Shown: piece after piece, positions 3,839-57,552 of the stretch | Position numbering within the stretch: the stretch's first letter is position 1 | Layout: each line of letters starts with the position of its first letter | NCBI RefSeq assembly: GCF_963921235.1 | Contig: NC_086097.1 | Location: 84,260,001-84,324,000 of the forward strand | Source of the DNA: Mobula hypostoma | Taxonomy: Eukaryota | DNA: 64,000 nt | Direction of reading: 5' to 3' | Made by a program: the position numbers and the translations under genes | The notes under the pieces: generated by a model | Databases searched by the model: none | What the model was told of the DNA's origin: nothing | Seen by the model: only the letters and a program-made list of their open reading frames with translations

Positions 3839-4010
3839 TTTTTAATAGGAGACCGTGATCAAGACCTGGAGTGCAATGTACACTGTTCCAGTTCCCAGCC
3901 GAAGCCTCTCTGTGTGTCCGATGGCAGGACTTACGAGTCAAGATGTGACTTCCAGAGGGCCAAGTGCCGGGATCCAACACTGGAGATCACACACCGAGGC
4001 AGATGTAAAG
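3839..4010 (+). CDS. SMOC1: SMOC1 coding exon 2 (Kazal/follistatin-like domain), 172 bp, phase 0 to 1
   Basis: ttttgttttcag acceptor and AAAG|gtacat donor. Translates FLIGDRDQDLECNVHCSSSQPKPLCVSDGRTYESRCDFQRAKCRDPTLEITHRGRCK, matching human SMOC1 FLISDRDPQCNLHCSRTQPKPICASDGRSYESMCEYQRAKCRDPTLGVVHRGRCK. Confidence 0.96.
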
Positions 4011-9046: not shown

Positions 9047-9162
9047 AGACAGGCCCAACCAAGTGTCGGACAGAGAGGGCACAGCAGGCACAGGAACAGG
9101 CCAAAAAACCACAGGAACCGGTGTTTATTCCAGAGTGTAACGAGGATGGCTCATTTGCTCAG
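9047..9162 (+). CDS. SMOC1: SMOC1 coding exon 3 (N-terminal half of thyroglobulin type-1 domain 1), 116 bp, phase 1 to 0
   Basis: ctctcattttacag acceptor and CAG|gtaagc donor. Translates (E)TGPTKCRTERAQQAQEQAKKPQEPVFIPECNEDGSFAQ, versus human KCRLERAQALEQAKKPQEAVFVPECGEDGSFTQ. Confidence 0.96.
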
Positions 9163-15179: not shown

Positions 15180-16951
15180 TTCACCAGTGAAAAGGACCTT
15201 GATAATTGTGGGGATGAATTATAGCAGACTGAAACGCTTGAGGTGTAGACATCAAGAAAGGATGTGCTGGAGCTTTTGAAAGGTGATAAGTTGCTGGGAC
15301 TGGATGAGATATACCCCAGGCTGCTGTGGGAAGCAAGGGAGGAGATTGCTGAGCCTCTGGCAATGATCTTTGCATCATCAGTAGGGATGGGAGAAGTACC
15401 AAAGGATTGAAGGGTTGCAAATATTGTTTCCTTGTTCAAATAAGGGAGTAGAGATAACCCAGGAAATTATAGACCAGTGAGTCTTTCTTCAGTGGTGGGC
15501 AAGTTGTTGGAGAAGATCTTGAGATGCAGGTTTTATGAGCATTTGGAGAGATATAATCTGATTAAGGATAGTTAGCATGGCTTTGTCAAGGGCAGGTAAT
15601 GCCTAACGCGCCTGATTGAATTCTCTGAGGATGTAACAAAACACATTGAAGGTAGAACAGTGGATGTAGTGTATATGGATTTCAGTAAGGCATTTGGTAA
15701 GTTTCCCCATGCAGGGCTCATTCAGAAAATAAGGAGGCACGAGATCCAAGGAGACCTTGCTTTGTGGATCCAAAATTGGCTTGCCCACAGAAGGCAAAGG
15801 GTGGTTGTAGATGGGTCGTATTCTGCATGGAGAATGGTAACTGGTGGTGTTCCGCAGGGATCTGTTCTGGGACCCTTCTTTGTGATTTTTATAAATGGCC
15901 TGGATGAGGAAGTAGAAGGGTGGGTTAGTAAGTTTGCTGATGACACCAAAGTTGGGGGTGTTGTGGATAGTCTGGAGGGTTGTTAGAGGTAACAGCGAGT
16001 CATCATTTGGATTCAGAACTGGGCTGAGAAGTGGCAGATGGAGTTCAACCCAGATAAGTGTGAAGTGGTTCATTTCAGTAGGTCAAAATTGAAGACAGAA
16101 TGTAATATTAGTGGTAAGTCTGTTGGCAGTGTGAAGGATCAGTAAGATCTTGGGATCCATGTCCATAGAACACTCAAAGCTGCTGCACAGGTTAACAGCG
16201 TAGTTAAGAAGGCGTATGGTGTGATGGCCTTCATTAACTGTGGGATTGAGTTCAAGAGCCATGAGGTAATGTTAAAGCTATATAAGACCTTAGTTAGACC
16301 CCACTTGGAGTACTGTGTCCAGTTCTGGTCACCTCACTACAGGAAGGATATGAGCAACACACACAAAATGATGGAGGAACTCAGCAGGCCAGGCAGCATC
16401 TATGGAAAAGAATGCAGTCAATATTTCAGGCCAAAACCTTTCGGCAGGAAAGATATAGATACTATAGAGAGTATGCAGAGGAAATTTACAAGGATGTTGC
16501 CTGGATTAGAGAGCATGCCTTATGAGAATCAGTCGAGTAAACTTGGCTTTTTCTCCTTGGAGCGACGGAGGATGAGAAGTGAGCTGATAGAGGTGTATAA
16601 GATGATGAGAGGCATTGATTGTGTGAAGGCTTTATCCGAGGGCTGAAATGGCTAATGTGTGAGGGTATCATTTTAAGGTGCTTGGAAGAAGGTACAAGGG
16701 GGATTTCAGAGGTTAGTTTTTCCACACAGAGAGTGGTGGGTGCTTGGAATGCACTGCCAGTGACTCTGGTAGAGGCGGATACAATAGGGTCTTTTAAGAG
16801 ACTCTTAGATAGGTACATGGAGCTTAGAGAAACAGAGGGCTATGCAGTAGGGAAATTCTAGGCAGTTTCTAGAGTAGGTTACATGGTCGGCACAACATTG
16901 TGGGCCGAAGAGCCTGTAATGTGCTGTGGGTTTCTACGTTTTATGTTCTAT
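15180..16951 (+). mobile_element. CR1-type LINE, 5'-truncated, decayed reverse transcriptase
   Basis: Contains [29 protein letters not shown] and LVRPHLEYCVQFWSP motifs with stops and frameshifts, plus a (TTCTATGT)-like tail. Confidence 0.95.
16352..16444 (-). mobile_element. PLE terminal fragment inserted in CR1
   Basis: TSD CAGGAAGGATAT (16340-16351) and CAGGAAAGATAT (16445-16456). Confidence 0.85.
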
Positions 16952-26760: not shown

Positions 26761-27077
26761 CAAATAGGATCTAGATCCGTTATTTTCATCATTAACATTT
26801 TCTTCAAAATTTGCCTGAATTCTCAAATTCTTCCTTTTGACTTTCAAATGTATTTGTAGAGCTGGTCTTGTGTCATCTTTTTGTACAGTGAAAACTACCT
26901 CAAAGCACTATTGTAGCAAATATTTCTGTAGCACTTATTATGAACCAAGATGGCATCACCGGTAGCTCTCTCCAGTAGGCTCATTTTTCCCTTCACAATA
27001 AATATGTTGATAAGTGCATTCAATTTTAATATTTCTTGCAATTTTCTTTTCATATTTTTCATATTTTTGTCATTATT

Positions 27078-28096
27078 TGGTGACCAGTGGTGTGCCTCAG
27101 AGATCTGTTCTAGGGCCCCTACTCTTTGTGATTTTTATAAATGACCTGGATGAAGAAGTGGAGGGATGGGTTAGTAAATTTGCTGATGACACAAAGGTTG
27201 GGGGTGCTGTGGATAGTGTGAAGAGCTGTCAGAGGTTACAGCGGGACATCGATAAGATGCAAAACTGGGCTGAGAAGTGGCAGATGGAGTTCAACCCAGA
27301 TAAGTGTGAGGTGGTACATTTTGGTAGGTCAAATATGATAGCAAAATACAGCATTAATGGCAAGACTGTTGGCGGTGTGGAGGATCAGAGAGATCTTGGG
27401 GTCCGAGTCCATAGGACACTCAAAGCTGCTATGCAGGCTGACCCTGTGGTTAAGAAGGCGTACGGTGCATTGGCCTTCATCAATTGTGGGACTGACTTTA
27501 AGAGCCGAGAGGTAATTTTGCAGCTATGTAGGACCCTGGTCAGACACCACTTGGAGTACTGTGCTCAATTCTAGTCGCCTCACTACAGGAAGGATGTGGA
27601 AACCGTAGAAAGGGTGCAGAGGAGATTTACAAGGATGTTGCCTGGATGGGGAGCATGCCTTATGAGAATAGGTTAAGTGAACTCGGCCTTTTCTCCTTGG
27701 GGCAATGGAGGATGAGAGGTGACCTGATAGATGTGTACAAGATAATGAGAGGCATTGATTGTGTGGATAGTCATTTCAACCCTGAGTTTTTCCCCAGGGC
27801 TGAAATGGCTAGCATGAGAGGGCATAGTTTTTAGGTGCTTGGAAGTAGGTACAGAGGAGATGTAAGGGGTAAGTTTTTTTTACGCAGAGTGGTGAGTGCG
27901 TGGAATGGGCTGCCAGCAGCGGGTGGTAGAGGTGGAAATGATAGGGTCTTTTAAGAGACTTTTGGATAGGTACATGGAGCTTAGAAAAATAGAGGGCTAT
28001 GGGTAAGCCTAGGTATCTCTAAGGTAAGGACATGTTGGGCACAGCTTTGTGGGCCGAAGGGCCTGTACTGTGCTGTAGGTTTTCTGTGTTTCTATG
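27078..28096 (+). mobile_element. CR1-type LINE 3' fragment
   Basis: ORF 27014..27574 contains [39 protein letters not shown]...LEYCAQF. Tail is tttctgtgtttctatg. Confidence 0.95.
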
Positions 28097-30132: not shown

Positions 30133-30232
30133 GTGCAGTGCCACACATTCACAGGGTATTGTTGGTGTGTTACTCCCGATGGAAAACCAGTGAGTGGATC
30201 TTCGGTTAAAAATCAAACACCAGTGTGTTCAG
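30133..30232 (+). CDS. SMOC1: SMOC1 coding exon 4 (C-terminal half of thyroglobulin type-1 domain 1), 100 bp, phase 0 to 1
   Basis: ttttgtctgaacag acceptor and CAG|gtactg donor. Translates VQCHTFTGYCWCVTPDGKPVSGSSVKNQTPVCS, with the QC and CWCV thyroglobulin signature. Confidence 0.97.
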
Positions 30233-32145: not shown

Positions 32146-32193
32146 GTTCAGTAACTGACAAGCCCTCAGGCCCCAGCAGTTCAGGCAGAAAAG
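32146..32193 (+). CDS. SMOC1: SMOC1 coding exon 5, 48 bp, phase 1 to 1
   Basis: Poly-T tract plus caaag acceptor and AAG|gtgagt donor. Translates (G)SVTDKPSGPSSSGRK, versus human GSVTDKPLSQGNSGRK. Confidence 0.94.
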
Positions 32194-46026: not shown

Positions 46027-47905
46027 GATCCGAAATAGGTAAAAGCAGTTCTCAGGGATTGGAGCTTGTTTTCAGGATGACATTTTGGAGATGAATAACA
46101 ACAGGCCTTTTCAGCGGATCCGGAATGGGAAGCCTCTGAGCCATGCACCCATCTGCGGTTTACTCTGCAACCGTCACACCCAGGACCCTTCACCGCGATG
46201 GCTCAGGTGGAGTATACAAGCTGCGTCTGTGTCAGCGTGGCAGAAACAAAGCAAATATGTGTCACGTTGGGAAGGAGCGCTTGGAAGGCCTGGAAGTCTA
46301 TGGTACTGAGGAAAGTAAGCTAAGAGCGGCTGGGTTAAAGCAGACGATGGCAGATCCAGCACAGCTTTGTGTCCGTCCTGAGTGACCTTTTTGGAGTTGA
46401 TGAAAATGAGGAGAGATGGAAAAACATTTATTCCTATTGCACAGTGTTAAATTTATCTGACTGGCACCCATTGCAGCTATTTCATTTTTTAGTCAGTTGT
46501 TTGGTAATCATCTTTTTTTTAAAATTAGGTTTAACATTTGCAGTTGGGCGCAGGAGTCAACAACTTGCCCCCTCGAGCCTGCTCAGCCTTTTACTGTGAT
46601 AATGGCTGGACCAATGTTATTCCTCTAAATCTTATCATCCGATTCTCCTGCCTCAGATTTTTCAATGCAGAGCCCTCTCTGATCCCACTTACACCCTGGT
46701 ACAAATGCCGGAGGGTGAAGGCAGTGACCTTCGGTTCATCTGGCTGGCACTGTCACAGTTGAGGCTTATCTCGTTCGTTCCCAGTAAGCCCTGTGTTGAC
46801 AGCCTATATCATAGTGGTCATTGCATTGGGAAATATGGTCACCAGCTGTAGCTGGACAAATGTCTGCAACGATCTTGCAACTTTCCACCAGAATTGGCTA
46901 CTCAGTATTGTTTTGAAATACATAACTAAACTTAAAGGAAAATCAGTTGATGCCCTTTTTAAATGCTTGTGTGGTTATCTGCCTGGAGTGCTTGGAGATG
47001 TGTTCAGGAGATTAAAATGTGGGCTAACCCCGGAGCATTGGTGATTCTCTATGTGATCCAGTGGCTGTCTTTTTTCTTGTTCCACGTGGGAAGATGAGAC
47101 TTGCTAAGTTGCTTTAGATGCTCAAGTGGACCATAGAGAGAGGGATCCCTTACAATGTTGGAGCAGGAATAGTCTTCCTAAGGTCTGGTATCACAGAAGT
47201 ATCCTTACCTGCAAAGCTAATGGGAAAAGAATCTGCCATCATGAAGGGTAATGTAAGGGGTTTTTTCATGAACTGTATACTCCGTTTTACTGGGTCATAA
47301 TCCTCGCTAGAAGACCAGGATGCTTCATCGGCCGTCAAAATGCGACAAAGGCAACCTGAATATCTATTGGAAAACATGAAGTATTGAACCCCTAACCCCT
47401 TCAGCCTGAATTTGGTTTAAAGGTCAGAACTTCTGTTTTGCTCCCGCCAATTATTTATTCATATCAGCCAAAGTCATTAAATTAAATTGAAAAGGTGTTC
47501 CTTCAAATTCCAGTGTGCTAGTGTCTGAATTTATTTTTAGATGGTTTTGTCTCTTGTCCAGAGTGGCATATTGAAATGTCTTCTTCATCTGTATTTCAAT
47601 CTTCATCGTGTATAATGCATGTCCTGTGCCTGTCTCACTCTCCTTGTGTCCCTGTCCATGTAATCGGCTGACTCTGGGAAGTGTTTTGTGTTTGTTCTGC
47701 ATGTTTTTCCCGAGGTGATTCTGTGTCCTGGCTCTCTGTGCACTGTGTGCTTTGTTTCATTGCTGTTTTAGTTCGTTTCTTTCTGTTTTGTTCACCAAGT
47801 GGCCGGGCCATGTGCAAATCCCATCATTCAATAGTGCTGGAGAGTAGATAGTATTTACCTCAATAATGGTAGTTTCTTTTCAATTCTTTCTAACGCTGAA
47901 CTCAG

Positions 47906-47962
47906 AAGACGTCTCGAAGCCTACGCCAACCGCGGAAACCCAGCCGGTGTTTGATGGAGACG
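47906..47962 (+). CDS. SMOC1: SMOC1 coding exon 6 (short form), 57 bp, phase 1 to 1; long form starts at 47873
   Basis: ctgaactcag acceptor and ACG|gtgagt donor. Translates (E)DVSKPTPTAETQPVFDGD, versus human DDGSKPTPTMETQPVFDGD. Confidence 0.95.
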
Positions 47963-52271: not shown

Positions 52272-54350
52272 TTATAAGACCATAAAATATAGGAGCAGAA
52301 TTAGGCCATTTGGCCCATTGAGTCTGCTCTGCCATCATGACTGATCGATTTTTCCTTTCAACCCCAGTCTCCTGTGTTCTACCCGTATCTGTTCATGCCC
52401 TGATTAATCAAGAATCTATCAACCTCTGCCTTAAGTATACCTACTGACCTGGCCTCCAAAAGCTGCCTGTGGCAAAGAATTAGACAATAGACAATAGACA
52501 ATAGGTGCAGAAGTAAACCATTCGGCCCTTCGAGCCTGCACCGCCATTCTGAGATCATGGCTGATCATCTACTATCAATACCCGGTTCCTGCCTTGTCCC
52601 CATAACCCTTGATTCTCCTATCTATTAGATACCTATCTAGTTCTTTCTTGAAAGCATCCAGAGAATTGGCCTCCACTGCCTTCTGAGGCAGCGTGTTCCA
52701 CACCTCCACAACTCTCTGGGAGAAGAAGTTCCTCCTCAACTCTGTCCTAAATGACCTACCCTTATTCTTAAAACATGCCGTCTGGTACTGGACTCTCCCA
52801 GCATCTGGAACATATTTCCTGCCTCTATCTTGTCCAATTCCTTAATAATCTTATATGTCTCAATCAGACCCCCCCCAATCTCCTTAATTCCAGCGTGTAC
52901 AAGCCCAGTCTCTCTAACCTCTCTGCGTAAGACAGTCCGGACATCCCAGGAATTAACCTAGTGAACCTACGCTACACCTCCTCCACAGCCAGGTTGTCCT
53001 TCCTTAACCCTGGAGACCAAAACTGCACACAATACTCCAGGTGTGGCCTCACCAGGGCCCTGTACAAATGCAAAAGGATTTCCTTGCTCTTGTACTCAAT
53101 TCCCTTTGTAATAAAGGCCAACATTCCATTAGCCTTCTTCACTGCCTGCTGCACTTGCTCATTCACCTTCAGAGACTGATGAACAAGTATTCCTAGATCT
53201 CTTTGTATTTCTCCCTTACCTAACTCCACACCATTCAGATAATAATCTGCCTTCCTGTTCTTGCTCCCAAAGTGAATAACCTCACACTTATTCACATTAA
53301 ACGCCATCTGCCACGTTTCTGCCCACTCACCCAGCCTATCCAAGTCACCTTGAATTCTCCTAACATCCTCATCACATGTCACATTGCCACCCAGCGTAGT
53401 ATCATCAGCAAACTTGCTGATGTTATTCACAATGCCTTCCTCTAAATCATTGACGTAAATCGTAAACTTCTGTGGTCCCAATACCGAGCCCTGTGGCACC
53501 CCACTAGTCACCACCTGCCATTCCGAGAAACACCCATTCACTGCTACCCTTTGCTTTCTATTTGCCAACCAGTTTTCTATCCATGTCAATATCCTCCCCC
53601 CAATGCCATGAGCTCTGATTTTACCCACCAATCTCCTACGTGGTACTTATCAAATGCCTTCTGAAAGTCAAGGTACACCACATCCACTGGACCTCCCGCG
53701 TCTATCTTCCTGGTTACATCCTCGAAAAACTCCAATAGATTAGTCAAGCATGTTTTGCCCTTGGTAAATCCATGCTGGCTCGGCCCAATCTTAGCACTGC
53801 TATCAAGATATGCCGCTATTTCATCTTTAATAATGGACTCTAGCATCTTCTCCACTACTGATGTTAGGCTAACAGGGCGATAGTTCTCTGTTTTCTCCCT
53901 CCTTCCTTTCTTAAAAAGTGGGATAACATTAGCCATTCGCCATAGATTGCATAGATTCCATAGATTCACCACAGCATAGCTAAAGGAATTCTTCTTCATC
54001 TTTGTTCTAAGAGGAACCCCTCCATTCTGAGGCTGTGCCCCCTGGTCTTAGACTCCCCCACTATAGGAAACATCCTCTCCACATCCGCTCTCTCTCGAGG
54101 CCTTTCAACATTCAATGTTTCAATGAGGTCACCCCTCATTCTTCTGAATTCCAGTGAGCAGAGTCCCAGAGCCATTAAACACTCCTCATATGACAAGCCT
54201 TTCAATCCCAGAATCATTTTTGTGAACCTCCTTTGAACCCTCTCCAATGTCAGCACAAAATTCTTCGAAAAGGGGCCCAAAACTGCTCACAATACTCCAA
54301 GTGAGGCCTCATCAGTGCTGTACAAAGCCTCAGCATTACATCCTTGTTTT
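52272..54350 (-). mobile_element. CR1 3' fragment (52272-52481 and 53958-54350) with a younger CR1 (52482-53940) inserted
   Basis: Inner ORFs 52972..53631 and 53586..53999 contain [32 protein letters not shown] and SKFADDT, with an (AGACAAT)n tail. The outer halves join colinearly when compared with the 48223-48880 copy. Confidence 0.92.
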
Positions 54351-57471: not shown

Positions 57472-57552
57472 AGATCACAGCACCAACCCTTTGGATAAAG
57501 CAACTAGTTAGTAAAGACTCCAAGCATAATGGCTCCAGTATGAGGATTCAAG
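57472..57552 (+). CDS. SMOC1: SMOC1 coding exon 7, 81 bp, phase 1 to 1
   Basis: ttttgctctctttcag acceptor and AAG|gtaagt donor. Translates (E)ITAPTLWIKQLVSKDSKHNGSSMRIQ, versus human EITAPTLWIKHLVIKDSKLNNTNIRNS. An N-glycosylation sequon (NGS) is present in the same region. Confidence 0.95.

Follow-up and report, generated by a model that had tools for sequence, protein, structure and literature searches.

The SMOC1 locus and the acceptors of exon 6

The window analysed here, a 64,000-nt stretch of the genome of the ray Mobula hypostoma, contains exons 2–7 of SMOC1 (Table 1), and no SMOC1 exon beyond exon 7 was found within these 64 kb. Translation of exons 2–6 together with an optional insert at the start of exon 6 yields exact substrings of the Mobula RefSeq proteins P0016 and P0033. 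Membership of the SMOC family is evidenced by the Pfam architecture of protein P0001, with a Kazal/follistatin domain, two thyroglobulin (TY) domains, a unique linker and an EC domain, and for the window by the identity of exons 2–6. The long introns also hold what we take to be degenerate LINE reverse-transcriptase fragments (window positions 15600-16650, 27014-27830 and 52578-54047). Exon 5 has the length reported for mouse Smoc1, 48 bp (PMC8526618).

Table 1. Features of the SMOC1 locus, in window positions
Feature	Position	Strand	Remarks
SMOC1 exon 2, follistatin/Kazal	3839..4010	+	match to Mobula protein
SMOC1 exon 3, start of first TY domain	9047..9162	+	match to Mobula protein
SMOC1 exon 4, end of first TY domain	30133..30232	+	100 nt, equal to mouse
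SMOC1 exon 5	32146..32193	+	48 nt; ends AAA G / GTGAGT; phase-1 donor common to all acceptors
Intron end upstream of long acceptor	47848..47872	+	9/16 pyrimidine, lowest among 6 acceptors scored
Upstream acceptor TAG, long form	47870..47872	+	read from the sequence
Optional 33-nt extension, (V)SFQFFLTLNS	47873..47905	+	no internal AG; intronic in short form
CTAAC, sole yTnAy motif of the insert	47890..47894	+	A at -13; not kept in invertebrate loci
CAG/AAG tandem acceptor	47903..47908	+	short form; short form minus one E
Exon 6 core	47906..47962	+	57 nt, phase 1-1; followed by GTGAGT donor
SMOC1 exon 7, APTLWIKQL helix of linker	57472..57552	+	81 nt, equal to mouse

A preliminary description of this locus had placed a TAG (47870-47872) exactly 33 nt upstream of a CAG acceptor (47903-47905), the two being separated by an in-frame extension without a stop codon that reads VSFQFFLTLNS. 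The sequence bears this out, and the extension is also free of any internal AG. The layout is that of an alternative 3' splice site, with one donor, two AG acceptors, one exon and the reading frame kept. A third acceptor, AAG at 47906-47908, had been overlooked; it fits the RefSeq isoforms which have one E less (P0011-P0013, P0031 and P0036), and the length of exon 6 is accordingly 90 nt from TAG, 57 nt from CAG and 54 nt from AAG. RefSeq isoforms with and without this E, matching the CAG/AAG tandem at 47903-47908, are seen in rays, skates and chimaera. Isoform annotations that leave out exon 6 altogether also exist for other vertebrates, namely zebra shark, coelacanth, birds, frogs and a marsupial, which brings the states of the exon to at least four. 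An extra AG, in frame and 21 nt upstream of the long acceptor, is present at 47850-51; it is used by none of the RefSeq isoforms seen. The intronic stretch before the TAG translates identically (IVFTSIMV) in read-through Ensembl models of the chimaera, indicating that intronic sequence is conserved there.

Other classifications of the long/short choice were rejected. A NAGNAG reading fails because the acceptors lie 33 nt apart instead of 3, although the separate CAG/AAG pair does qualify, and a microexon or cassette exon is discounted as the insert continues straight into exon 6 and has no donor of its own. U12-type introns carry a GTATCCTT-type donor and a TCCTTAAC branch site; this class was dismissed since the donor is GTGAGT in the window and at two invertebrate loci (L002 and L003, see below).

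Branch points are expected to read yUnAy about 18–40 nt upstream, followed by a pyrimidine tract. It had been proposed that the insert doubles as both elements for the short form, a proposal for which the case is weak. The insert is intronic in the short form, and 17 of the 19 positions from -33 to -15 are pyrimidines; close to the acceptor, however, from -14 to -5, only 4/10 are. A single yTnAy motif, CTAAC, is present, and its A at -13 falls on the acceptor side of the pyrimidine block; none of six invertebrate loci has such a motif. CTAAC is at most a putative branch point.

The insert in vertebrate SMOC proteins

The same 11 residues are annotated as an isoform under 16 chondrichthyan species names (sharks, rays and chimaera), usually beside the short form, and the Mobula forms are known as RefSeq models X1-X4; most isoform records are indeed automated gene models. 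In a set of 104 representatives (P0050-P0153), nearly all from bony vertebrates, 65 carry the insert in the form VSF[RH][FL]FLTLN[SP]. Both teleost and tetrapod SMOC1 proteins have it. Within 57 representatives in which exon 5 directly precedes the insert, the insert shares an identity of 0.84 with its shark counterpart, against 0.82 for exon 5 and 0.62 for exon 6: the vertebrate insert is as conserved as exon 5 and more conserved than exon 6. In the Leucoraja erinacea models P0003 and P0022 a 4-residue gap follows the insert, possibly due to an assembly error, and the otherwise matching run assemblies P0004 and P0032 have no gap.

The variant VSFRFFLTLNS, given in the preliminary description as a mouse isoform, is seen in mammalian SMOC1 of Thomomys, Meriones, Myotis, Suricata, Macaca, Papio and Gorilla, and Ensembl exon 6 of mouse Smoc1 measures 90 bp, the length of the long exon in the ray (PMC8526618). 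No mouse or human SMOC1 long protein was found among the cluster members listed (15 of 420 and 15 of 121), and human SMOC1 is given only with 434/435 aa in an Ensembl list of 2016 (PMC5122892). The comparable insert expected in SMOC2 was also found, as VSLQIFS[VI]LNS, and two human SMOC2 transcripts differ by 33 bp, that is 11 aa (ENST00000354536 with 457 aa versus ENST00000356284 with 446 aa; PMC5122892). Human SMOC2 is elsewhere quoted at 457 aa (PMC10493216), and Ensembl also lists 446 aa; given that papers use either form, the choice of isoform may be an uncontrolled variable. A third vertebrate paralogue, 'SMOC1-like', is observed in rays and lungfish (P0161, P0163 and P0174). The lungfish protein has VAFEFFSSLNA as a plus/minus insert, and none of the seven listed isoforms of the ray paralogue contains one.

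Full-length long forms occur in four sequencing-run assemblies (P0150, P0416, P0471 and P0510, the last of these on 25 contigs), on contigs of 2.6-3.1 kb. Such short contigs imply spliced RNA, in species other than this ray. Among the sequencing runs listed as containing the sequence, none was catalogued as RNA. The short form is found in all three listed chondrichthyan and in 8/9 listed goby-type run-assembly proteins, the sole long goby-type protein having been chosen for its insert. Altogether, the long form is probably minor or tissue-restricted.

The insert in invertebrates and its age

In most of the invertebrate SMOC/Magu proteins seen, an additional EF-hand module lies between the two TY domains, and many of these proteins have a near-identical 11-mer directly after it. 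This motif, with the consensus S-F-R-L-F-L-S-L-N-S, lies 4-6 aa past the first EF-hand pair in hemichordate, echinoderm, mollusc, annelid, brachiopod and arthropod proteins. Isoform pairs with and without it are found in an annelid (Owenia, 12 aa), a brachiopod (Lingula), a limpet (Patella), a bee (Lasioglossum, 10 aa), a lanternfly (Lycorma) and a firefly (Photinus), and the changes in the first residue within these pairs fit a split phase-1 codon. Since this first set had been chosen by a regular expression modelled on the vertebrate motif, we scored a second set of 120 proteins with a profile built from vertebrates only, applied to 115 of them after five had been dropped as already selected; the query alignment included long forms. 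The motif was recovered 4-6 aa after the first EF-hand pair in 21/96 anchored proteins, and only two of 51,025 other positions scored, both being the same motif displaced by an extra exon; 10 of the 19 unanchored proteins also contain it.

On the deuterostome side, Glandiceps, Amphiura and Patiria (hemichordate, brittle star and sea star) carry the motif and form a bridge. It was absent from both listed isoforms of amphioxus, from the seven of Anneissia (crinoid), the seven of S. purpuratus and the three of hagfish; these absences cover the listed isoforms, and unlisted ones could have the motif. In one cnidarian and four similar proteins the module is joined directly to the second TY domain, and both linker and motif are missing. 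An insect-like Magu protein (P0268) has LYTQIFTVLNS in a long His-rich linker before the second TY domain, SMOC2-like and far from the EF-hand module.

At the DNA level, a scan of metagenomes with a degenerate pattern gave eight matches. Six of them gave SMOC protein matches, and in every one an AG stands exactly 33 nt upstream of the CAG, which makes the double-acceptor layout common to the ray and to invertebrates; L004 and L006, with no upstream AG and no SMOC match, were dropped as chance matches. At two of the loci a phase-1 GTGAGT donor closes the EF-hand exon, at a distance of 977 nt (L002) and 825 nt (L003) upstream. Nucleotide identity to the ray insert is 23-27/33, a figure partly forced by the search pattern, and at 3-4 of the 7 shared residues the codon differs from that of the ray.

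Protostomes and deuterostomes thus have in common the intron position, the 33-nt spacing, a homologous peptide and an equal intron phase, the latter read from DNA at two invertebrate loci and elsewhere deduced from junction residues. The preliminary description considered the insert older than the split of cartilaginous and bony fishes and possibly than the SMOC1/2 duplication; this holds, and the age had been underestimated, as both motif and layout reach protostomes. The insert likely reflects one splice choice that was already present in the last common ancestor of bilaterians; we hold a single origin across the group with good confidence.

Independent origin of similar peptides

Pyrimidine codons favour F, S and L, and unrelated pyrimidine tracts might therefore yield similar F/S/L-rich peptides if cryptic upstream AGs had arisen separately in each lineage. 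Such convergence is documented for other classes of splice events (PMC9741552), and it would accommodate the invertebrate inserts of 10 and of 12 aa as well as the listed amphioxus and hagfish isoforms in which the motif was not seen. We have thus scored positions 2-10 with a profile derived from nine protostome inserts, against simulated tracts free of AG and stop codons in four base compositions. Of 690 open pyrimidine-rich pseudo-acceptors in the window, none scored as high as the ray insert, and 5-8 of 2.65-2.91 million simulated tracts did, about 2-3 per million; the corresponding rate for the SMOC2 insert was about 0.6-1 in 1000. This rarity argues against convergence, as do the identical phase and site before the second TY domain, the 33-nt spacing at 6/6 SMOC loci and the intermediate taxa that carry the motif. 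Repeated independent origin is very unlikely.

RNA and peptide constraints

A different possibility is that the 33 nt are kept as an RNA element which controls the splicing of exon 6, the long protein being a tolerated by-product of a leaky first AG. The pyrimidine content from -33 to -15 (17/19 in the ray and 14-17/19 at the six invertebrate loci) is consistent with this, and so are the nucleotide identity of 23-27/33, itself partly pattern-forced, the conserved intron upstream of the TAG in the chimaera, the skipping of exon 6 in several vertebrates and the rarity of the long form in run assemblies. However, residues stay while 3-4 of 7 codons change synonymously, the branch-like CTAAC is missing at 6/6 invertebrate loci and positions -14 to -5 are pyrimidines at only 4-6/10. 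In addition, F, L, S and P would be interchangeable in a pyrimidine tract, whereas the 50 distinct 11-mers retain S2 in 41, F6 in all 50 and L9 in 47 cases, partly an effect of the score cut. Codons containing purines also persist within the would-be tract, N10 (AAY) in 43/50 and R/Q/H4 in 46/50 of these 11-mers, five of which resemble chance or diverged matches and were kept in the counts. The acceptor dictates the residue at position 11, and the split codon that at position 1. RNA and peptide constraints probably both act, and an origin of the conservation in splicing control, with the peptide as by-product, seems unlikely. As judged from these sequence patterns, the peptide is quite probably the main constraint, so that selection would act at the protein level.

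Structure and proposed function of the insert

The site of the insert, the SMOC 'unique domain', has a role that a review describes as little studied (PMC6831058). In the mechanism that we propose, a single phase-1 donor could be joined to either of two acceptors spaced by 33 nt. Choice of the first would extend the predicted-disordered linker between the thyroglobulin domains by a hydrophobic peptide of 11 residues, which would likely act there as a switchable linear binding motif and fold on a partner. In the AlphaFold model of a shark protein the insert falls in linker residues 163-234 with pLDDT<50, and in that of Lingula it is helical at 296-304, pLDDT being below 50 from residue 299; neither monomer shows a confident docking site for the insert on SMOC's own domains. 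An insert modelled with low confidence and undocked would suit a linear motif whose folding requires a partner. A homodimer prediction run without an alignment (two copies of long form 40-465) scored 0.00 against a mark of 0.32 and is uninformative either way, and a sequence search of the PDB returned no SMOC structure, only relatives of the TY, EC and Kazal domains. The mean Kyte-Doolittle value of the insert is 0.90, and its hydrophobic moment is larger as a strand (1.68) than as a helix (0.78). The motif may resemble the first helix of TGF-beta/BMP prodomains. Vertebrates seem to have kept the motif and lost the EF-hand module located before it in invertebrates, which makes this module an unlikely partner.

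The partner may be the mature BMP dimer, by analogy with the C-terminal NPFxxxL motif of SMOC. C. elegans SMOC-1 co-precipitates mature BMP, and the double change F253D/L257D in its C-terminal motif weakens this co-precipitation, the F/L pair being needed for full binding (PMC10464977). For human and Xenopus SMOC1, the same source predicts that the linker between the TY domains makes contact with BMP, and does not name the residues involved (PMC10464977); the exon-7 helix is an equal candidate to the insert for this predicted contact. An F-x-x-x-L/I/V/M spacing (positions 3-7) is present in 35/50 insert 11-mers and is broken in SMOC2 and in the third paralogue. The C-terminal NPFxxxL motif is itself variable (P0353-P0380), being present or absent and reading NPFIGRLV or NPFRRLV in mammalian and shark isoforms. 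By this analogy BMP is the leading, though only possible, partner of the insert, one that we put forward tentatively.

The peptide may instead act otherwise, through self-association, another matrix or cell-surface partner, retention in the secretory pathway or cleavage of the linker. The apparent non-covalent dimers as which Xenopus SMOC-1 and its EC-less form elute (PMC5360445) would suit such a role, as would the hydrophobic and strand-like pattern of the insert; the monomer models, on the other hand, show no confident docking on SMOC domains, although low pLDDT is still compatible with binding in trans. We regard these other roles, taken together, as somewhat unlikely.

The whole explanation that we favour, a splice-toggled binding motif kept by selection and derived from a single bilaterian splice choice, is moderately probable. 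Its most specific version is doubtful: here the ancestral choice would persist in the three vertebrate SMOC paralogues as well as in insect Magu/Pentagone because it switches a further BMP-clamping motif of the 'unique domain' on or off. If true, this toggle would tune SMOC between BMP antagonist and range expander. SMOC is a BMP modulator tied to human eye and limb malformations (PMC3131273) and to dental defects (10.1101/416669).

Comparison with known systems

The closest counterparts are the annotated long isoforms of SMOC1 and SMOC2 (XP_062908161.1, Mobula hypostoma X1; human SMOC2; mouse Smoc1), which have the same acceptor pair and the same 11 aa, the event in the ray being their orthologue. 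Database entries list these isoforms, and neither function nor homology of the insert is described there. The open-access literature likewise yielded no account of the insert, of what it does or of its homologues in other paralogues and invertebrates, and no match to four insert peptides searched as text; subscription papers, among them the original descriptions of SMOC-1 and SMOC-2, were outside this scope and may mention the variant. The isoforms are already annotated, and the locus has a real alternative acceptor, probably as old as the bilaterians, with a putative function.

At NAGNAG tandem acceptors, AGs compete at one intron end, as at the CAG/AAG pair beside the insert; unlike in that class, the long/short event of SMOC covers 33 nt and adds a conserved peptide. 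The C-terminal NPF/VxxxL motif by which SMOC contacts BMP (PMC10464977) is, like the insert, short, hydrophobic, placed in a flexible region and variable between isoforms, whereas the insert has no NP, its spacing is broken in SMOC2 and in the third paralogue, and its binding is putative.

Finally, the ancient splice events compiled in PMC9741552 are chiefly tandem duplicated, mutually exclusive exons. About 5% of human splice events are dated even to fish in that study, which reports much convergence and cites no microexon conserved between fly and mouse (PMC9741552). The SMOC insert resembles these events in being deeply conserved, in frame and of small effect on the protein and, unlike the duplicated exons, consists of an alternative 3' site in a disordered linker. 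Few splice choices appear to be common to insects, molluscs, echinoderms and vertebrates.
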